From contig CAZOBN010000003.1 in the NCBI GenBank assembly GCA_964577835.1, positions 490 to 64,489 on the forward strand: a stretch of 64,000 bases of DNA. The letters run 5' to 3'. The stretch comes from an uncultured Rhizobiaceae bacterium (GTDB lineage: Bacteria > Pseudomonadota > Alphaproteobacteria > SMXQ01). Below, in pieces: positions 1,475 through 45,929 of the stretch; the stretch's first letter is position 1; every line of letters begins with the position of its first letter. Both the position numbers and the translations under genes were made by a program. A model generated the notes under the pieces. It worked only from the letters and a program-made list of their open reading frames with translations, searched no databases and was not told where the DNA came from.

Positions 1475-2664
1475 TATTCGGATCCCTCTTCGTCAGCCGA
1501 GCGCGCCGTACGTCCGGTCGGATCCCACAGCGGATTCCACACTTTGAAGACTTGCGGCAGATCCACTTCGAGCTGGATCGGATCGCGGAAGGCGACCTTC
1601 TTGCCCACGAGCTGCTCCGGGAAGGACAGGAAAGCCTCGATCTGCAGGTCCTTGTGCACGGGCGGCGAATTCTCCGCGTGATACTGGGCGATCTGCCCTT
1701 CCTTGCTGAGGAACCAATTGACCCACAGCTTCGAGGCATAGGGGTGCGGGTTGCCCTTCATGATGCTGAGCTCGGAGATCGCGAGCGGCACGGGTTCGGG
1801 GCAATGCCAGCTGATCGGCGCTTTCTTTTTCACGTATTGCAGGGTGCGGTAGGCGGCGCCGGGAATGACCGCGTGGAATTCGCCGGCGATGACGAGCCCG
1901 AGCAGCGCGTTGTTGCCTTCCTTGCGGAGCTGCGGCTTGACCTCGCCGAACAGTTTCTCCAGGTAGGGCTTGCCCCATTTCTCGCCATAGCCTTCGAGAG
2001 CCCAAATGTTGGCGAACCATAGATTCGGGCGGTTCGACAGGGCGAGGTTGCCGTCGCGCCACACCGGATTGCTCAGGATGTCCTCCCAGGTTTTCGGGAG
2101 GTCCTCCTTCTTGACCTTGTCGGTGTTGTAAGCCATGCACCAGTAGCGCAGGCGCTGGCCGACCCACAGGCCTTCCTTGTCCTTCATGCCGTCGGGCACG
2201 TTCTTCCAGCCGGGCAGATCGCGCATGTCCACCAGCGCGTCGACCTTCTTGAACATGGCATAGCTGGCGCCGATGCTGCCGATCAGGTCGGTGGTGACCC
2301 GACCGCTCGATTCAAAAGCCAGCAACGGCTTGAGTGTGCGTTCCTGGCGGCTGCCGCGCGAATATTCATGCTTGATGAACGGATAGCGCTCGACGAAGGC
2401 TTCGGTGAGCTTGCGGTATTGCGGCGGGTCCCAGGTGGCCGCCATGCGGACGGCGCCTTCCTTCTTGGCGGCGTCGAGCCACGCCTGCGGCACCGCCAGC
2501 TCTTCATCGAGACCGGCTAGGATCGACGGATCGAGATCGAGCTCCTTGAGGAACTTCTGCGTGGCCTTCGGCAGCTCGGCCGATACGGTCGGAGCCACGG
2601 CAAACGCCGCGGCGCCGGCAACGATCATGGCTGCCGTCAGCAGCCTGTGTGATGAACGCTTCAT
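1474..2664 (-). CDS. ABC transporter substrate-binding protein, paralogue 1 of 4
   Basis: ORF 1474..2748 trimmed to the signal peptide MKRSSHRLLTAAMIVAGAAAFAVAPTVSA (ATG 2664, CCGGAGGG SD). The mature end ELPKATQKFLKELDL... and the WHCPEPVP motif are shared with the other three paralogues. The gene is start/stop-coupled to the permease. Confidence 0.8.
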   Translation of the reverse strand: MKRSSHRLLTAAMIVAGAAAFAVAPTVSAELPKATQKFLKELDLDPSILAGLDEELAVPQAWLDAAKKEGAVRMAATWDPPQYRKLTEAFVERYPFIKHEYSRGSRQERTLKPLLAFESSGRVTTDLIGSIGASYAMFKKVDALVDMRDLPGWKNVPDGMKDKEGLWVGQRLRYWCMAYNTDKVKKEDLPKTWEDILSNPVWRDGNLALSNRPNLWFANIWALEGYGEKWGKPYLEKLFGEVKPQLRKEGNNALLGLVIAGEFHAVIPGAAYRTLQYVKKKAPISWHCPEPVPLAISELSIMKGNPHPYASKLWVNWFLSKEGQIAQYHAENSPPVHKDLQIEAFLSFPEQLVGKKVAFRDPIQLEVDLPQVFKVWNPLWDPTGRTARSADEEGSE

Positions 2665-2704
2665 CTGTAGCCCTCCGGTGTCGGCGGTTCGCCGCATGAT
2701 GGGA

Positions 2705-3880
2705 TCATTCCTCGTTTTGTGACTCGGAGTGGACGCCGCCCGCGCCAACCCAATACTTCGACCAGATCTGGTTGAGCTCTTCAGTGGCGCCCTCCTGCTC
2801 CGGCACGCGGAACGCGATTTTGCGTTCGACGATCTGCTCGGGAAACGAGAGAAAGGACTCGGTTTGCAGGTCCTTATGCACCGGCGGCGCGCCGTCGGCG
2901 GCGAATTGGGCGATCTGGCCTTCCTTGCTCAGGAACCAGTTGACCCAGACGCGCGAGGCGTTGATGTGCGGATTGCCCTTGAGAACGCCCATGCTGGATA
3001 CCGCCAGGGGTACCGGTTCGGGACAATGCCAAGCCACCGGCGCGCCGCGCTCCAGATACTGCTTCGCGCGACGAGCGGACGCCGGCAACGCGCCGTTGAA
3101 CTCGCCGGCGATAGCCAGGCCGAGCAGCGCGTTGTTGCCTTCCTTGCGAACCTGCGGCTTCACCACGTTGAAGAATTTGTCGAGGTAGTTGAGGGTCCAC
3201 TCCTTGCCGAATTCGCCCCACAGCATGAGCAGCCATAGCTGCGGACGGTCGGCGACGCCGATATTGCCGTTGTGCCACTTGGTGTTTGTGAGGATATCGT
3301 CCCAGGTCTTGGGCATATCCTCCTTTTTCACCTTATCTGTGTTGTAGACGATGCACCAATAACGGATGCGAGTACCGACCCAGGTACCATTGGCATCACT
3401 GGTATTCGGCAGCGGATTCTTGAAGCCGGGAATCTGGCGCAAATCCTCGAGCGCGCCGGCCTCTTCGAAATGCTGCTCGCTGCCGCCGAATCCGGTCACG
3501 ATATCCGTGGTATAGCGGCCTTCCTTGTAGGCGATCAGGGTGCGCATCGCCCGGGCGTTGAAGCCGGCGCGGGAGTATTCCACCTTAATCCCAGGGAAGC
3601 GCTCGCGGAACGGCACGTTGAGCAATCCGAACTGCTTGGGGTCCCAGGTGCCGAGGATGCGCACCGTGCCTTCCTTGTGGGCGCCGTCGAGCCACGCCGG
3701 CGGCACGACGAGTTCATCGTCGAGCCCGGACAGCACCTCCGGCGTCAGGTTCAGCTTCTTCAGGATGGCCTGGGTGGCCTTTGGCAATTCGGCGGAGACG
3801 GCCGGCGCCGCGGCAAAGATCGCGGCGCCGGCAACGATCGTTGCGGCGAGCATCAGCATTCCCTGTGAGGAACGCTTCAT
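2705..3880 (-). CDS. ABC transporter substrate-binding protein, paralogue 2 of 4
   Basis: ORF 2705..3913 trimmed to MKRSSQGMLMLAATIVAGAAIFAAAPAVSA (ATG 3880). Collinear with paralogue 3 along its whole length, with most positions identical. Confidence 0.8.
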   Translation of the reverse strand: MKRSSQGMLMLAATIVAGAAIFAAAPAVSAELPKATQAILKKLNLTPEVLSGLDDELVVPPAWLDGAHKEGTVRILGTWDPKQFGLLNVPFRERFPGIKVEYSRAGFNARAMRTLIAYKEGRYTTDIVTGFGGSEQHFEEAGALEDLRQIPGFKNPLPNTSDANGTWVGTRIRYWCIVYNTDKVKKEDMPKTWDDILTNTKWHNGNIGVADRPQLWLLMLWGEFGKEWTLNYLDKFFNVVKPQVRKEGNNALLGLAIAGEFNGALPASARRAKQYLERGAPVAWHCPEPVPLAVSSMGVLKGNPHINASRVWVNWFLSKEGQIAQFAADGAPPVHKDLQTESFLSFPEQIVERKIAFRVPEQEGATEELNQIWSKYWVGAGGVHSESQNEE

Positions 3881-3922: not shown

Positions 3923-5092
3923 TTATTCCTCGGGCGTATTGGACTGCGTGCCGCCCGCGCCGACCCAATACTTGGCCCAGATCTGGTTGAGTTCCTCCGT
4001 CGCGCCCTCCTGCTCCGGCACGCGGAACGCGATCTTGCGTCCCGAGATCTGATCGGGAAAGGCGAGGAAGGCCTCGGTCTGCAGATCCTTGTGCACCGGC
4101 GGCGCGCTGTCGGCGGCGAACTGCGAGATCTGGCCTTCCTTGCTCAGGAACCAGTTAACCCATAGACGCGACGCGTTCATGTTCGGGTTGCCTTTGAGAA
4201 TACCCATCTGAGAGACGGCGAGCGGCACTGGCTCCGGACAATGCCAAGCGGCCGGCGCTCCACGCTGCTGGTACTGCTTGGTGCGGTAGGATGCGGCCGG
4301 CAATGCGGCATTGAATTCCCCGGCGATGGCGAGGCCCATCAGCGCGTTGGCGCCTTCCTTGCGGATCTGCGGCTTCACCACATTGAAGAATTTGTCGATG
4401 TAGTTGAGGGTCCATTCCTTGCCGTATTCGCCCCACAGCATCAGCAGCCAAAGCTGCGGCCGGTCGGCGACACCGATCTTACCGTTGTGCCACTTGGGAT
4501 TGGTCAGGATGTCGTCCCACGTCTTGGGCAGATCTTCCTTCTTCACATTCTCGGTATTGTAGGTGAGGCACCAGTAACGCAGGCGCGTGCCGACCCAGGT
4601 GTTGTTCGCATCGCCGGTATTCGGCAGCGGGTTCTTCAGGCCAGGGATATCGCTCAAGTTATCGAGCGCGCCGGCCTCTTCGAAGTGCTGCTCGCTGCCG
4701 CCGAATCCGGTCAGGATGTCGGTGATATAGCGGCCTTCCTTGTAGGCGATCAGGGTGCGTAGCGCCCGGGCGTTGAAGCCGGCGCGGGAATATTCCACCT
4801 TGACCCCGGGGAAGCGCTCTCGAAACGGCGCGTTGAGCGGCACGAATTGCTTGGGGTCCCAAGTCCCAAGAATTCGAACCACGCCCTCCTTTTTGGCGCC
4901 GTCGAGCCACGCCTGCGGCACGGCGAGCTCCTCGTCGAGCCCGGCCATCACCTCGGGCGTCAGCTTCAGCTTCTTCAGGACCTCCTGAGTGGCCTTCGGC
5001 AGTTCGGCGGCGCCGGCCGCCGACGCTCCCATTGCGCCGAACACCAGCGCCGTTCCGGCGATCCATTGGACGATACGTTTTGTTCCCATCAT
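3923..5092 (-). CDS. ABC transporter substrate-binding protein, paralogue 3 of 4
   Basis: ORF 3923..5176 trimmed to MMGTKRIVQWIAGTALVFGAMGASAAGA (ATG 5092 or 5089, GGGAGA SD). The mature end is ELPKATQEVLKKLKL... Confidence 0.8.
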   Translation of the reverse strand: MMGTKRIVQWIAGTALVFGAMGASAAGAAELPKATQEVLKKLKLTPEVMAGLDEELAVPQAWLDGAKKEGVVRILGTWDPKQFVPLNAPFRERFPGVKVEYSRAGFNARALRTLIAYKEGRYITDILTGFGGSEQHFEEAGALDNLSDIPGLKNPLPNTGDANNTWVGTRLRYWCLTYNTENVKKEDLPKTWDDILTNPKWHNGKIGVADRPQLWLLMLWGEYGKEWTLNYIDKFFNVVKPQIRKEGANALMGLAIAGEFNAALPAASYRTKQYQQRGAPAAWHCPEPVPLAVSQMGILKGNPNMNASRLWVNWFLSKEGQISQFAADSAPPVHKDLQTEAFLAFPDQISGRKIAFRVPEQEGATEELNQIWAKYWVGAGGTQSNTPEE

Positions 5093-11088: not shown

Positions 11089-11193
11089 CTAGACCATGAT
11101 CCGCTTCCGTGGAATCGGATCATGGTCTCGAGTCTTGATTTCGTCGCGTTTTCTACGCCGAACCGGTATCCACTTCGGCGGAAAACGCTCTAG
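11089..11193 (+). mobile_element. 105-bp CTAG-bounded double-hairpin MITE, copy A
   Basis: CTAGACCATGATCCG...CGGATCATGGTCTCGAG...CGTTTTCTACGCCGAA...TTCGGCGGAAAACGCTCTAG. Same length and architecture as copies at 36605..36709 and 45825..45929. Confidence 0.8.
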
Positions 11194-33728: not shown

Positions 33729-34661
33729 TCACGCTTTCAACCAGCGCCAGCCGTCGCCACGATGGCCAAAATCGAATGTCGCGGGATGCAGAATCTCGGC
33801 GAGGATTTCCGCCGAGTCGGCGAGGCGCGGCCCCGGCCGGTTGAAATAGCGGTTGCCGTCGGCGACCGCGACACGCCCGCCGCCCACAGCGCGCAGAGTC
33901 TGCCAGCCATCGCGACCGGCCAAGGCGCTCATCTCCGCGTGGGTGCGCGCCAGATCGAACCCGCACGGCATGGCGACGATCGCATCGGGATCGCTCGCGA
34001 CGATTTGGTCCCATCGCAGCCAAGGCGAATGAGCGCCCGCAACGCCGAACAGGTTTTCGCCGCCCGCCGCCGCGATCAGCTCCGGCACCCAATTGCCCGC
34101 CGTCATCAGCGGCTCGATCCATTCGATGGTGGCGACGCGTGGCCGTTCGGCAACCGCGGTCGTCCGCGCCGCCAGCGCCGCGATGCGGCTCGTCATGCGG
34201 TCCGCCAGCTTGTCGCCCTCGGCGGCGCGGCCGATGGCCGCGGCGATGGTGCGAAAACTGTCGGCCACCTCGGCGATGGTCGCCGGCGTCAGGCTGACGA
34301 CCTGCGGCGCTGCGCCGAGCCATTCGGCTAGCGCGCCGCGCAGATCGCTCTCCGAAACCGCGCAGACTTCGCATTGCGACTGGGTGACGATCAGGTCGGG
34401 CTGGAGCGCGCGCAGCCGCGCCGCGTCCACCTTGTAGATTCCGAGAGCCTGCTCGATCAGCATCGTGATGTCGCGATGAATGGCGGCAGAATCGCCCGCC
34501 AGAGGACGCTTCAGCGCGGTACAGGCCGGAAGCTGCGCAACGGATGGCGGAAAATCGCACTCGTGAGAGCGACCGACGAGGGCGTCAGCCGCGCCGAGTG
34601 CGGCGACGATCTCGGTGGCGCTCGGCAGCAGGGAGACAATGCGGGGCAAGGCGTTGACCAT
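33729..34661 (-). CDS. Cobalamin/siderophore-type periplasmic-binding-fold protein (BtuF-like)
   Basis: MVNALPRIVSLLPSATEIVAALGAADALVGRSHECDFPP.... There is no obvious signal peptide from ATG 34661. Confidence 0.7.
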   Translation of the reverse strand: MVNALPRIVSLLPSATEIVAALGAADALVGRSHECDFPPSVAQLPACTALKRPLAGDSAAIHRDITMLIEQALGIYKVDAARLRALQPDLIVTQSQCEVCAVSESDLRGALAEWLGAAPQVVSLTPATIAEVADSFRTIAAAIGRAAEGDKLADRMTSRIAALAARTTAVAERPRVATIEWIEPLMTAGNWVPELIAAAGGENLFGVAGAHSPWLRWDQIVASDPDAIVAMPCGFDLARTHAEMSALAGRDGWQTLRAVGGGRVAVADGNRYFNRPGPRLADSAEILAEILHPATFDFGHRGDGWRWLKA

Positions 34662-34732
34662 GGCGGCAGACTGGCCCGTGGTTGCGCGCGCCGCAAGGGA
34701 ATGGTTCACTCGGCGGCAATGGGAGGCCGAGG

Positions 34733-34930
34733 ATGACACGCACCATCGACGCGGAGTTGCGCGAACGGCTGGAGATGGCCGGCTGCTATCCCAAGCGCGT
34801 GACCCCCGGAGGCGGCGAGATCTGGTTCTCGCCCCATCTCAACCGCGATTTCACCGTCGAGCGCCGCATCGCCGACGCGGCCGCCGCCAACGCCGCCCTG
34901 CGCCGCGCCGGCATGGAAGAAGCATTCTAG
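34733..34930 (+). CDS. Small hypothetical protein with HicA/YcfA-like pattern
   Basis: GGGAGG SD + ATG 34733, with high third-position G+C. MTRTIDAELRERLEMAGCYPKRVTPGGGEIWFSPHLNRDFTVERRIADAAAANAALRRAGMEEAF. Confidence 0.5.
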   Translation: MTRTIDAELRERLEMAGCYPKRVTPGGGEIWFSPHLNRDFTVERRIADAAAANAALRRAGMEEAF

Positions 34931-35037
34931 GTCGCCCGCGCGGCCACGTCCTATGTTCGACGGAGTGGCCAAGGCGGGACGATTGCGCTTATAAAAGCCA
35001 GTAAGCCGCGCGAGACGGCGGTTGAGGGGGAAATTTC

Positions 35038-36111
35038 ATGTTGCTGCTGGGTAGTCTGTTGGCGGTTCTGTCCGCCGCCACCTTCGCGCTCAATGGTGCC
35101 ACGGTGCGACGGGGCGTGCTCACCGGCACCGTGTCGCAGGCCATGGCGATCACCGTACCCCTCGGCGTGCCGATGTTCTTTTTCGGCGCCCTCGCCCTCG
35201 GCCACCTTGGCGATATTTTCGGCTTCCCGCCCGAGACCGTCGCCATGCTCGCCGCGGCCGGCATCATTCACTTCGTATGGGGACGCTACTGCAACTACCG
35301 CGCGACCAAGGCGATCGGCGGCAATGCCTCGATCCCTCTGCAGCAGCTCGACTTTCCCTTCAAGCTCGGGCTCGCCATCGTCCTGCTCGGCGAAACGCTG
35401 ACGCCTCTGCGCGTCTTCGGCATCGCGCTGATCATGCTGGGCGGCGCCATCGCCGTTCCCAAGCGGCGCAAGAAAGCCAAGAAGGAACCGTCCGAGGGCG
35501 CCATGGCGGGCACCGGCGCCGCCGATCCGCAGTTGCAGAGCGTCGGGGCCGCGGCCGTGCCAGCCGATACAGGCAAACCCGCAAAGCCCGTGTTCGTGCC
35601 GAACTATCGGGAAGGCTACATCTTCGCCGCGCTGTCGGTCACGGGCTACGGCATCAGCCCGCTGTTCATCCGCGCGGCGCTCGAGGACACGAGCATCGGC
35701 ACCAGCCTCGCGGGCGGCTTCATTTCCTATCTCGCTGCCACCATCGTCATCATGCTGATGTGGCTCAAGCCCGGCCAGTTCCAGCACGTGATCTCGGTCA
35801 ACCGTCAGTCGGTGAAGTGGTTCCTGATGTCGGCGGTGTTCGTCGGCTTCTCGCAGATGACCCGCTACATGGCCCTGGCGTTGGCGCCGATCACCGTCGT
35901 CGCGCCGTTGCAGCGCTCGGCCTCGTTGTTCCGCGTGATTTTCAACTGGCTGATCAACCGGCAATATGAAGTCTTCGAGCGTCGCTTGCTCGTCGGCATC
36001 TTCATCTCCGTGCTCGGTGGCGTGTCGCTCGCGCTGACCACGGATTTCGTGGTCTCGATCCTGTCGTTGCCGGACTTCGCCCGCGAGGCGATGTACTGGA
36101 CCTGGCCGTAA
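35038..36111 (+). CDS. DMT (EamA-type) superfamily transporter
   Basis: 357 aa. Two five-TM halves are separated by a charged insert (PKRRKKAKKEPSEG...). Confidence 0.7.
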   Translation: MLLLGSLLAVLSAATFALNGATVRRGVLTGTVSQAMAITVPLGVPMFFFGALALGHLGDIFGFPPETVAMLAAAGIIHFVWGRYCNYRATKAIGGNASIPLQQLDFPFKLGLAIVLLGETLTPLRVFGIALIMLGGAIAVPKRRKKAKKEPSEGAMAGTGAADPQLQSVGAAAVPADTGKPAKPVFVPNYREGYIFAALSVTGYGISPLFIRAALEDTSIGTSLAGGFISYLAATIVIMLMWLKPGQFQHVISVNRQSVKWFLMSAVFVGFSQMTRYMALALAPITVVAPLQRSASLFRVIFNWLINRQYEVFERRLLVGIFISVLGGVSLALTTDFVVSILSLPDFAREAMYWTWP

Positions 36112-36223
36112 TCGCCGCGAAGGGCAAAAAAGACCGCCCAGCATTTGGCGCTTGCCTTTGCGGCTGGGGTTCTATAATTTAGAACAAATCGTGAACATTC
36201 CAACGAGATTGCAGGAGGGCGTC

Positions 36224-36511
36224 ATGCGTTATCCGAGCTTGATCGTGAGCGTGTTGATGACTGCGGCGGTCGTTTCGCCCGTCTTGAGCCAGCCTTACAA
36301 TTTCTTCGAAACCCGCGAGGAGCTGGAGCGCCGGCGCCAAGCCGAGCAGTATTATTACGAGAAAGAGCAGCAGAAGCGCGGCAACTATCTGAATACGGTG
36401 AAGCCGCGCCCGCTCGGCGAGGCACAGTCCTCATGGACATCGCGCGGCCAGCCCGACAACTTCGCCCCCAACCGTCCGCGCGAATGCCCGCCGAACAACT
36501 ACATTTGCTGA
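36224..36511 (+). CDS. Small secreted protein, hypothetical
   Basis: GGAGGG SD + ATG 36224. Signal peptide MRYPSLIVSVLMTAAVVSPVLSQ, then a charged Tyr/Glu/Gln-rich sequence ending ...CPPNNYIC. Confidence 0.5.
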   Translation: MRYPSLIVSVLMTAAVVSPVLSQPYNFFETREELERRRQAEQYYYEKEQQKRGNYLNTVKPRPLGEAQSSWTSRGQPDNFAPNRPRECPPNNYIC

Positions 36512-36586
36512 TGCGCGCATGGTGAGGCGCGGGGCGACCATGTCGGCTGCCTCGCCGCCTCGCTTCCAATTGGGATGTCGCGTTGG

Positions 36587-36763
36587 GAGCGCCGAGCTCA
36601 GTCGCTAGGGCGTTTTCCGCCGAAGTGGAAACCGGTTCGGCGTAGAAAACGCGATTAAATCAAGACTCGAGAGCATGATCCGATTCCACTGAAACGGATC
36701 ATGCTCTAGGGCATCTGACTTTTAATCAGAGGGTCCCGGGTTCGAATCCCGGCGCGCTCACCA
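36587..36763 (+). pseudogene. tRNA-Lys(UUU) gene interrupted in the D-loop by a MITE
   Basis: 5' piece 36587..36608: GAGCGCC GA GCTC AGTCGCTA G. 3' piece 36710..36763: GGC A TCTGA CTTTTAA TCAGA GGGTC CCGGG TTCGAAT CCCGG CGCGCTC A CCA. The two pieces join to a 76-nt cloverleaf. Confidence 0.7.
36605..36709 (-). mobile_element. 105-bp CTAG-bounded double-hairpin MITE, copy B (inverted relative to A and C)
   Basis: Its reverse complement is essentially identical to copy C (one C/T difference seen near the end). Confidence 0.85.
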
Positions 36764-36769
36764 AAAAAA

Positions 36770-37378
36770 TCACGCAGCGGCGCCGGACACCGCGCTTTCG
36801 ACCAGCCGACGGCGGTCCTCGGGAAGCGTTCGGCTGAGCGCCAGCGCCGCGGCATGGCCCGAGGGCGACATCTTGGCCCAGGTCTTGCGCAGGATGTCGA
36901 CGACCTTGGCGTCGTCATGCTGGCGCGAGAAGTCGGTGAAGAAATTTTCAAGGAAAACCAGGCAGGCCGCGTCTTCGAGCAGTTGCGCCTCGGGGTCGGT
37001 CTTGAGGTTCTCCTTGCGCAGCAACTGGCCGACCCGCGTCACGGTCGCCGCGTCGTAACCGGCTTCGGCCAGGATACCGCCGGCGGTCTTGGCGTGGAAC
37101 GCGGCCAGCGCGCGGCGCCAGCGGTAATAGCCTTGCTTGCCCGCCGGATAGTCGGCGCGCGGGCTGGTCCAGCGGCCGATATGCTGCGCGCGGACGGCGA
37201 GTCGCAGCGCGTCCGACGCGTCGGGCGCCAACTGGCTCAGCCAGTGGCTCATGCGGCGGCCATAATAGAGTTCTTTCGCCAGCGATTGGCCGTCGATCAT
37301 CAAGCGGTTGGGATCGCCGCTGTTGAAAGCGTCGATGCCGGCGATGGCGCGGGTGAATTTGTCGTTCGTTTCGGGCAT
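36770..37378 (-). CDS. DUF4202-family protein
   Basis: MPETNDKFTRAIAGIDAFNSGDPN...RRMSHWLSQLAPDASDALRLAVRAQHIGRW...DAACLVFLE. GAGGAA SD before ATG 37378. Confidence 0.65.
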   Translation of the reverse strand: MPETNDKFTRAIAGIDAFNSGDPNRLMIDGQSLAKELYYGRRMSHWLSQLAPDASDALRLAVRAQHIGRWTSPRADYPAGKQGYYRWRRALAAFHAKTAGGILAEAGYDAATVTRVGQLLRKENLKTDPEAQLLEDAACLVFLENFFTDFSRQHDDAKVVDILRKTWAKMSPSGHAAALALSRTLPEDRRRLVESAVSGAAA

Positions 37379-37428
37379 CGGTTCCTCGCGTCTTGCAATC
37401 CCACGGTGCCGCATACTACATCGTACCC

Positions 37429-38436
37429 ATGGATGTGCGATCCCTTCCCCAGACCATGACGGCCATCGAAATCGCCGAGCCGGGCGGTCCCGAGGTGCTG
37501 CGGCCGAATACGCGGCAGGTGCCGCATATCGGCCCGAACGACGTGCTCATCAAAGTGGCCGCCGCCGGGATCAACCGGCCTGATCTGTTGCAGCGCCAGG
37601 GCGGCTATCCACCGCCCCCGGGCGTCACCGACATTCCCGGGCTCGAGGTCGCCGGCGCGGTGGTCGCGGTCGGCGAGCACGCTTATCCGAAGTGGCATAT
37701 CGGCGACAAGGTCTGCGCCCTGATCGCGGGCGGCGGCTACGCCGAATATTGCGCGGCCCCCGCCGGCCAATGTCTGCCGATTCCGGCGGGGCTGACGCCG
37801 GTCGAAGCGGCGTCCCTGCCGGAAACCTTCTTCACCGTGTGGAGCAATCTGTTCGACCGCGCCCGGCTCACCAGCGGCGAGACCCTGCTGGTGCATGGCG
37901 GATCGAGCGGCATCGGAGTCACCGCGATCCAGCTCGCCACGGCGTTCGGCGTGCGCGTGCTGGTCACCGCCGGCAGTGACGAGAAGTGCGCCGCCTGCCT
38001 GAACCTGGGCGCGGAGCGCGCGATCAACTATCGCAAGCAGGATTTCGTCAAGGAAACGAGAGCCATGACCGACAACCGCGGTGTCGATGTGGTGCTCGAC
38101 ATGGTCGGCGGCGACTATATCGCGCGCAATATCGAGGCGCTGGCCCCCGACGGCCGCATGGTCTTCATCGCCTTCCAGAAGGGCGTGAAATCCGAAATCA
38201 ATTTCCTTCCCATCATGCTCAAGCGCCTGACCCTCACGGGCTCGACGCTGCGGCCGCGCGACGTGTCCTTCAAATCCGCCATAGCGCGCGAACTCGAGGC
38301 CAAGGTGTGGCCTTTGATCGCGTCGCGCGTCGTGCGGCCGGTGGTGCACGCCACCCTGCCGCTCGCCGAGGCCGCCGAGGCGCATCGGATCATGGAAGTC
38401 GGCAATCACGTCGGCAAGATCGTGCTCACGGTCTGA
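37429..38436 (+). CDS. NAD(P)H:quinone oxidoreductase (MDR superfamily, Qor/PIG3-like)
   Basis: AAGINRPDLLQRQGGYPPPPG and VHGGSSGIGVTAIQLA. Start is either ATG 37429 or 37456. Confidence 0.8.
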   Translation: MDVRSLPQTMTAIEIAEPGGPEVLRPNTRQVPHIGPNDVLIKVAAAGINRPDLLQRQGGYPPPPGVTDIPGLEVAGAVVAVGEHAYPKWHIGDKVCALIAGGGYAEYCAAPAGQCLPIPAGLTPVEAASLPETFFTVWSNLFDRARLTSGETLLVHGGSSGIGVTAIQLATAFGVRVLVTAGSDEKCAACLNLGAERAINYRKQDFVKETRAMTDNRGVDVVLDMVGGDYIARNIEALAPDGRMVFIAFQKGVKSEINFLPIMLKRLTLTGSTLRPRDVSFKSAIARELEAKVWPLIASRVVRPVVHATLPLAEAAEAHRIMEVGNHVGKIVLTV

Positions 38437-38456
38437 CCCGGCGTTTCGCCGATCCG

Positions 38457-39575
38457 TCAACCGGCAAATTCCCGCCGCAGTTTTTCCGAATGTTCGCCCA
38501 GCGCCGGCACGCGCCCGAGGCGTGAGGTTTCGCCCGTGACCTGCGCGGGTGGCGCGGGCAGGGCCACGGGACCACTCGACGTTTCGATCACAGTGCGACG
38601 AAGCTGCGGATGAGCCGACAATCCATCCACCCCATTGAGCATGCCATAGGCGATTGCCGCACCGCTCAAGCGGCGCACGGCTTCGTCGCGCGTCAAGGTA
38701 CCGAGCACCGCCGCGATCTCGGCATCCAGCGCCGGGCGGTGGGCAACGCGCGCCGTATTGTCGTGAAAGCGCGGATCGCTCGCCATCGCCGGCTTCCGCA
38801 GGACGTCGGCGCACAGGCGCTGCCATTCGCGCTCGTTCTGAATCGACAGCAGCACCTCGCCATCGGCGAACCGATAGACGCCATAGGGCGCGATGGTCGG
38901 ATGGTTGAGTCCGACTCGCGCCGGCGCCTCGCCGCCGTAATCGAAATGCAGCAGCGGCACCGTCATCCAATCGGCCATGCCGTCGAACAGCGACACTTTG
39001 ATGCCGCTTCCCTCTCCCGTCTGGCCACGGCGGATCAGGGCTTCGAGAATGGCGCTGTAGGCATACAGCCCGGCGGCGATATCGCACACCGACACGCCGA
39101 CGCGGCCCGGCCCTTCCGCACGCCCGGTGATCGCCGCCAGCCCGCTTTCGGCCTGGACCAGGAGATCGTAGGCCTTCATGTCGCGATAAGGTCCGCTCCC
39201 GCCATAGCCGGAGACGTCGCAGGTGATCAGGCGCGGATGGCGGCGGCGCAGATCGCCCGACTCGAAGCCGAGACGGGCCGCGGCGCCCGGCGCCAGGTTC
39301 TGGATGAAGACATCGGCGCGCGCCACCATGCGGGCGAGCAGCGCCGCGTCCTCCGGGTTCTTGACGTCCAGCGCAATCGATTCCTTGCCGCGATTGAGCC
39401 AGACGAAATAGGCGCTCTCGCCATGCACGACATGATCGTAGCTGCGGGCGAAGTCGCCCTCCGGGCGCTCGATCTTGATAACGCGCGCGCCCGCATCGGC
39501 CAATCGCCCGCTCGCCAGCGGCGCGGCGACCGCCTGCTCGAGCGCGAGGACGAGGAGCCCGTCAAGAGCGCCCAT
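38457..39575 (-). CDS. Class III CoA-transferase (CaiB/BaiF family)
   Basis: [38 protein letters not shown]. The start overlaps the nhaA stop by 14 nt. Confidence 0.8.
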
Positions 39576-45824: not shown

Positions 45825-45929
45825 CTAGAGCATGATCCGTTTCAGTGGAATCGGATCATGCTCTCGAGTCTTGATTTAATCGCGTTTTCTACGCCGAACC
45901 GGTTTCCACTTCGGCGGAAAACGCTCTAG
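45825..45929 (+). mobile_element. 105-bp CTAG-bounded double-hairpin MITE, copy C
   Basis: CTAGAGCATGATCCGTTTCAGTGGAATCGGATCATGCTCTCGAG...CGTTTTCTACGCCGAACCGGTTTCCACTTCGGCGGAAAACGCTCTAG. It ends 3 nt from the DUF488 stop codon. Confidence 0.85.

Follow-up and report, generated by a model that had tools for sequence, protein, structure and literature searches.

The locus at 36587-36763 of the 64-kb window, that is, the whole stretch of 64,000 nucleotides that was analysed, is very probably a non-functional and lineage-specific extra copy of tRNA-Lys(UUU), whose D-loop would have been hit by a non-autonomous MITE of the IS630 family. This reading, derived from sequence comparisons, starts from the layout of the locus, GAGCGCCGAGCTCAGTCG-CTAG-[101 bp]-GGCATCTGACTTTTAATCAGAGGGTCCCGGGTTCGAATCCCGGCGCGCTCACCA, where the MITE interrupts the tRNA between positions 22 and 23, within the D-loop, and the anticodon UUU of the 3' piece lies at 36721-36723 (Table 1). 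When 36587-36608 is joined to 36710-36763, the resulting 76 nt are called by ARAGORN as tRNA-Lys(ttt). The fold given for this reconstruction has six of the seven acceptor pairs, C7.C66 being a mismatch, and a U12-G23 wobble. Its anticodon and T arms are perfect, and the CCA is encoded.

Table 1. Features of the split tRNA-Lys(UUU) locus and its surroundings in the window (G001, the only other genome of the genus)
Feature	Position	Strand	Remarks
Third MITE copy in the window	11089..11193	-	More diverged, 93% identity
119-aa ORF, left neighbour	36152..36511	+	No Pfam family; adjoins the DUF4202 gene in G001 too
5' piece of the tRNA-Lys(UUU) copy	36587..36608	+	tRNA positions 1-22, from the acceptor 5' strand through G8 and the 5' half of the D-stem to a D-loop with CTAG at its end
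MITE, putatively of the IS630 family	36605..36709	+	105 bp with both CTAG ends, two hairpins; 99% identity to the reference form
3' piece of the tRNA-Lys(UUU) copy	36710..36763	+	tRNA positions 23-76, from the 3' half of the D-stem through the anticodon arm, variable loop, and T arm to the 3' acceptor strand and CCA
A6 run adjoining the CCA end	36764..36769	.	5/6 match to AGAAAA downstream of the intact gene; G001 without the run
DUF4202 gene, right neighbour	36770..37414	-	Pfam PF13875, E = 3e-72; 91% identical G001 ortholog; synteny anchor
Second MITE copy in the window	45825..45929	-	100% identity to the reference form

However, on the native sequence ARAGORN reports no tRNA gene, either in the whole 64-kb window or in a 500-bp native region. 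The Rfam tRNA model (RF00005, cut-off of 29 bits) matches the native DNA at 36703-36752 only, corresponding to the 3' two-thirds of the copy, with 31.5 bits. This match spans model positions 10-63, and its alignment uses the terminal GCTC of the insert as a stand-in D-stem strand. These results agree with the preliminary description of this DNA in most respects. It had proposed a tRNA-Lys(UUU) gene split in its D-loop by a MITE, which is borne out by the ARAGORN call of the excised 76 nt and by the insert being a repeat family of about 17 copies; it had put forward the excision of 36609..36709 to restore a 76-nt cloverleaf, with which both ARAGORN and the empty sites described below (a gain of 101 bp) are in accord; and it had expected scanners to report either nothing or a 3' fragment, as ARAGORN and Rfam do, respectively. 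A qualification concerns the standing of the gene: the copy is full-length, but it is an extra one and not the tRNA-Lys(UUU) gene of the organism, the working one being on another contig (C15). Run in intron mode on the native sequence, ARAGORN returned a "tRNA-Pyl(cta)" with a 168-nt intron, which was discarded as an artefact of the forced intron model.

The 5' piece is identical to the intact tRNA-Lys(UUU) of C15 at 19 of 22 positions. With annotated tRNA genes left aside, a single further site among the 7.67 million positions of the genome reaches 18 of 22, and the resemblance of the 5' piece to tRNA-Lys(UUU) is far beyond chance. On C51, a stretch of 17 nt agrees exactly with the variant 5' piece; it sits within a long coding frame and was set aside as a chance occurrence.

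The tRNA complement of the genome amounts to 48 tRNA genes plus the tmRNA, a count to be taken with caution because of apparent ARAGORN false positives: at least one is likely in GC-rich coding sequence (C6:4598, a 95-nt "tRNA-Ala(ggc)"), and a "tRNA-Asp(atc)" call is also listed. The tRNA-Lys genes are one tRNA-Lys(CUU) and one intact tRNA-Lys(UUU), at C15:46399-46474, the latter answering the question raised in the preliminary description about other genes with this anticodon. C15 and the contig of the split copy (C3) are compositionally alike, with a GC content of 64% in both and a tetranucleotide correlation of r = 0.997, so both come from one organism. Moreover, the flanks of the C15 gene align with those of the single tRNA-Lys(UUU) of G001 at 83-85% identity over ~1 kb, which makes C15 the ancestral locus and the positional ortholog.

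A comparison of the reconstructed copy with the C15 gene reveals differences at positions 7 (G>C), 8 (U>G), 19 (G>C), and 23 (A>G) only, whereas positions 24-76, the last 53 nt, are 100% identical. Because the tRNA-Lys(UUU) genes recovered from relatives all keep G or U at position 7, U8, G19, and A23, the four changes are derived in the split copy. The preliminary description had pointed to G8, C19, and the C7-C66 mismatch, which are thus real and derived; the fourth difference, A23>G, was absent from it. U8 and G19 are universal tRNA positions engaged in tertiary interactions, and the split copy lacks U8, an unaltered G18-G19, and a fully paired acceptor stem (G8, C19, C7.C66). Each of the four changes lowers the ARAGORN score, and the single reversion of any one raises it. 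The reconstructed tRNA is detectable only up to 104% of the ARAGORN default thresholds, compared with 124% for the intact gene. In Rfam, the intact C15 gene reaches 79.3 bits, against the 31.5 bits of the 3' part of the split copy. Also, no recognisable sigma-70-like promoter is observed upstream of the copy. With no recognisable promoter, no known bacterial pathway for removing the insert, and the loss of U8 and G19, the split copy is predicted to yield no tRNA, and the decoding need is met by the working C15 gene.

The distribution of the four changes is uneven: positions 1-23 contain all of them, and the 53 nt that follow contain none (Fisher p = 0.007). Such clustering is not expected if a recent duplicate simply decays in a uniform manner; it could stem from gene conversion of the longer 3' piece by the working gene, or from changes that accompanied the duplication or the insertion. 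The two copies cease to be homologous within a few bases of the gene, being limited to tgg upstream (~3 nt) and A(G/A)AAAA downstream (~6 nt). On the minus strand, the A6 run that follows the CCA forms the U-tract of a terminator-like hairpin (36795-36772) that lies over the last DUF4202 codons. Since the run is missing from G001, the tRNA-derived DNA may have given the DUF4202 gene its terminator tail.

The insert itself corresponds to 101 bp of net additional DNA (36609-36709) and belongs to an element with the ends CTAGAGC...GCTCTAG. About 17 copies are present in the genome, 16 full-length and one truncated, with unrelated flanks, and four of them are 100% identical to the 105-bp reference form. 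The element has the features of a MITE, being small, non-coding, and multi-copy, with near-identical copies. Searching the window with the exact hairpin gave two matches, compared with none in shuffles. Among the 17 copies, the left end CTAGGGC is unique to the one at the tRNA locus. This 7-nt string forms a direct repeat at both junctions (36605-36611 and 36706-36712), where CTAGAGC would be expected from the element reference and GTAGAGC from the intact tRNA. Parallel A>G changes, 101 bp apart, are thus seen at both junctions and are not accounted for by the explanation preferred here.

Comparison with G001 provides the target rule of the family. This genome harbors ~23 copies of the family at 79-89% identity; when the joined flanks of 15 of the present copies were queried in it, six orthologous sites could be aligned, and the element is found at none of these six. 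For the C145 copy, G001 reads ...ggcta-CTAG-acgcgg..., compared with ...ggcta-CTAG[...]CTAG-acgcgg... here, and for the C22 copy a single CTAG in G001 corresponds to CTAG[...]CTAG. The empty variants for the C36, C2, and C11 copies are CTAA, TTAG, and TTAA. These empty sites show that the element lands in CTAG-like sites with a gain of 101 bp, and the structure at C145 and C22 makes the excision of 101 bp empirically correct.

Outside the genus, 39 other relatives were searched and 38 of them lack the family, the exception being G028, a member of the same class, with a 42-nt partial match. Contigs of named genomes that carry the 18-nt terminus number 35 and belong mostly to soil Alphaproteobacteria; full-length copies with 80-87% identity occur in Stellaceae MAGs and in CAVVYA01, and distant, unannotated relatives on plasmids of Xanthobacter, Methylobacterium, and Sphingobium. 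An association between the element and a tRNA was considered in the Stellaceae MAG Bin_16 (L157:1-120), where the element is followed by TCGAATCCCGGCGC(G), identical to a tRNA T-loop/T-stem string, but this string recurs at L183:1388-1525. There it again follows the same element subfamily in mid-contig, with no tRNA, so TCGAATCCCGGCGC belongs to the repeat and the candidate was rejected.

Several copies in the present genome have neighbours of their own. The MITE copy at C145:3952-4056 lies outside an intact tRNA-Pro(CGG) gene (4182-4258), at a distance of ~125 bp on its upstream side. The copies C50:15524-15628, C6:5681-5784, and C1:28415-28519 are located at the end of another repeat family (...GACTTTTTCCGCAGCC..., ending CTGCTAG); in these three cases, the CTAG ends of one small element were used as landing sites by another. 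Also, the copy at C59:49-153 adjoins sequence of C279 (flank tgtagcgattctaacg...), a contig of 1,140 bp that is in essence one IS630-family element and has CTAG at either extremity; one element is thus nested in the other, with a CTAG in common.

Elements of this build are known from Brucella, where the palindromic repeats Bru-RS1 and Bru-RS2, of about 103 and 105 bp, were reportedly described by Halling and Bricker in 1994. Like the MITE, these are alphaproteobacterial, intergenic, double-hairpin repeats of ~105 bp. Repeats of the Bru-RS type have been associated with insertion sequences that target TA/YTAR (PMC2266754). The MITE is weakly similar to the Rfam family BASRCI27, built on a Bru-RS-type repeat, but with 28.1 bits it stays below the cut-off of 59.8 and falls outside the family, and the host lineage differs.

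Three IS630-family DDE_3 transposase genes are found in the genome. One of them, a DDE_3 transposase ORF of 312 aa that is intact, belongs to an IS630-family element of 1,051 bp on C122 (5254-6304), which is flanked by TA and has a left end, CTAGAGCGTTTTCCGCCG (C122:5254-5271), that is 100% identical to nucleotides 1-18 of the MITE. However, the right ends have only the terminal ~7 nt in common (the C122 element ends in ...CGCTCTA, and ...GCTCTA is shared), the interior of the MITE consists of two unrelated hairpins, and the MITE would have to be mobilised in trans. The assignment of the C122 element as the putative partner is thus based mainly on the left end. The C122 element closes an apparent small island (C122:2371-6304) that starts with a tyrosine integrase (2371-2892, minus strand), followed by a bare 3' fragment of tRNA-Thr(UGU) (3955-4003). 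The candidate partner of the MITE may have arrived on an integrative element.

According to PMC2170065 and to Tenzen and Ohtsubo (1991), cited there, the IS630 family inserts at TA and duplicates it, and IS630 itself prefers the TA of 5'-CTAG-3'. The present element resembles the IS630/Tc1-mariner insertion sequences and their MITE derivatives (e.g. ISY100, PMC2170065) in the insertion at TA within CTAG, in a gain of length that fits TA duplication, and in its short inverted termini; as in those derivatives, it is a non-coding, multi-copy, near-identical element, here with an 18-nt left end equal to that of a resident IS630-family element. IS5-type MITEs are also able to duplicate CTAG (PMC3189936). 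One of them, MITEPsy1 of Pseudomonas syringae, is similar in its length of 100 nt and in its CTAG or YTAA targets, but it is derived from IS5 and generates a 4-bp duplication (PMC3189936), whereas the end identity observed here points to an IS630-family partner. The empty sites alone fit TA or CTAG duplication equally, and it is the identity of the ends that favours an IS630-family element over an IS5-type one as the candidate partner.

The neighbourhood of the split copy is conserved in G001. There the small ORF reads ...CPPNHYLC at its C-terminus, in keeping with the conserved ...CPPN(N/H)Y(I/L)C, and a spacer of 51 nt separates it from the DUF4202 gene, both the tRNA and the MITE being absent from this spacer. 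An Rfam scan of 19 orthologous DUF4202 loci (G001 and 18 relatives) at E up to 5 detects no tRNA remnant. The preliminary description had proposed such orthologous loci as a check, where the lack of a tRNA would count against its reading. Since G001 has no tRNA there, the copy is not conserved; its identity as a tRNA stands on the comparison with the paralog. A DUF4202 protein search of contigs gave no record of a near-identical strain, and the 26-nt 5' junction shared by the filled and empty forms has no metagenome match.

Based on these data, the locus would have arisen in three steps. First, a copy of the size of the tRNA gene, with ~3 nt of upstream and ~6 nt of downstream sequence, would have been placed between the small ORF and the DUF4202 gene. 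Second, point changes gathered in its 5' part, among them G19>C, by which GTAG in the D-loop became CTAG; the alignment shows these changes, whereas their place in this order is a matter of inference. Third, the MITE would have inserted at the TA of the D-loop CTAG, as the target rule from the empty sites suggests, with duplication of its target and a gain of 101 bp, presumably mobilised in trans by the transposase of the C122 IS630-family element or by a relative of that transposase. The GTAG of an intact D-loop becomes the target CTAG only through G19>C, so that, following the target rule, at least this change probably preceded the insertion. The copy was then probably impaired already when the MITE landed, which gives substance to the suggestion in the preliminary description that it may already be decaying.

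A different history within the same pseudogene reading places the duplication earlier. The copy would be an old paralog that predates the split from G001, where it was lost or decayed, and after its interruption by the MITE the 54-nt 3' piece would have been homogenised by gene conversion while the 22-nt 5' piece drifted. Gene conversion accounts for the four-versus-zero asymmetry of the changes and for the T-stem of the 3' piece, which is the CCCGG/CCGGG of its own genome rather than the CATGG/CCATG of G001. The G001 spacer also resembles the acceptor end and T-arm in a weak, collinear way, with agreement in 24 of 33 columns of the alignment; this is marginal, however, since scores as good are obtained from 324 shuffles and from 263 random genomic 51-mers, out of 5000 each, and Rfam finds nothing in the spacer, so that no weight is placed on it. 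Moreover, the identity of 99% between the MITE copy and the reference form implies a recent split with little time for three changes to accumulate in the 22-nt 5' piece, and drift after the split does not fit a G19C change that has to predate the insertion. We regard this variant as rather unlikely.

Much less probable is a set of more unusual events. The split copy could be a mature, CCA-ended, and oligo-adenylated tRNA-Lys that was reverse-transcribed into intergenic DNA; and/or the TAGAGC termini of the element, which mimic the universal D-arm GGTAGAGC, could favour decaying tRNA D-loops, with the CTAGGGC pair recording an unusual homology-assisted insertion or conversion. The end of the homology with the parent ~3 nt upstream and the A6 run after the CCA are pointers to a retro-copy. 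On the other hand, the changed positions (7, 8, 19, and 23) are unlike the misreads of a reverse transcriptase expected at modified bases, and five of the six bases of the A-run are those of the 3' flank of the parent. We therefore consider these events very unlikely.

The extra copy proposed here must also be distinguished from the att-site remnant of a former tRNA-Lys island, where an element landed beside a 3' fragment and the likeness of the 5' piece is incidental. Such remnants share with the split copy a 3' block identical to a resident tRNA gene; here, the identity block begins at position 24. In addition, a BLAST of all tRNAs against the genome reveals ~10 other unannotated tRNA-like pieces, nearly all of them 3' fragments starting at positions 20-39 (65 for a short tRNA-Ser piece), and on C122, C5, and C85 three tRNA fragments lie beside tyrosine integrases. 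However, the other fragments have 5' sides at chance level, about 25-40%, whereas the split copy has a 5' part with 19 of 22 identities that falls in register once the independently defined 101-bp insert is removed. Also, no integrase (PF00589) is found on C3 or C15, and both flanks are contiguous in G001, with no synteny break and hence no island border. This reading is contradicted by the data and was rejected as highly improbable.

Genes for tRNA-Leu, Phe, Thr, Arg, and Ser are represented by further 3' fragments, all without the 5' part, at C5:5305-5351, C57:6163-6213, C55:1-54, C6:7939-7994, C5:21705-21753, C74:2289-2337, and C15:29934-29959. They are probable att-site scars of integrative elements, some of them lying beside integrases.

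Still less can be said for a working interrupted gene, in which the insert would be removed from the transcript or the two pieces would cooperate, as in the intron-containing and split tRNAs of archaea. The insert is composed of two self-contained hairpins in a very stable fold (the 177-nt locus has a predicted energy of -85.3 kcal/mol, z = -7.0), so the flanks could in principle meet. The situation resembles archaeal BHB introns and split tRNAs, as well as the group I introns of bacterial anticodon loops, in that parts of a tRNA gene are kept apart by an intervening sequence. Here, however, this sequence is a common mobile repeat with 16 further copies at unrelated sites, it lies in the D-loop, Rfam gives no intron family match at E up to 1 over positions 34000-39000 of the window, and the exons are defective, with the loss of U8 and G19, no promoter, and a locus that is absent in relatives. 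To our knowledge, there is no bacterial pathway for removing a D-loop insert, and bacteria are without the splicing endonuclease of archaea and eukaryotes. A functional gene of this kind would be extremely improbable. Finally, an assembly artefact, in which the collapse of a 105-bp repeat fused two contig halves that do not belong together, can hardly be credited: it could be suspected in a metagenome-type assembly of 283 contigs with 5.7% estimated contamination, where several MITE copies are 100% identical, but G001 has the small ORF next to the DUF4202 gene as well, a false join would not bring two halves of one tRNA together in register by chance, and this copy has a private variant at its left end.

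No report of a bacterial MITE inside a tRNA D-loop was found in the literature searched, which is not proof of novelty. The split locus is ordinary in kind, a gene fossil that is useful for annotation: at such a site a tRNA finder is silent, and a covariance search gives a 3' fragment that can be mistaken for an island att site. The presence of an in-register 5' part, of an integrase, and of conserved synteny are the features that tell a split tRNA from an att remnant. As an intact tRNA-Lys(UUU) gene is present, the insertion would have no evident physiological consequence for the organism. For the element, the locus and its relatives offer a natural example of the CTAG rule of IS630-type transposition in an uncultured soil alphaproteobacterial lineage, with empty sites at base resolution and a resident candidate partner. 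In this example, the single change G19>C would have opened to insertion the GTAG of the D-loop, a conserved tRNA motif that is otherwise immune.
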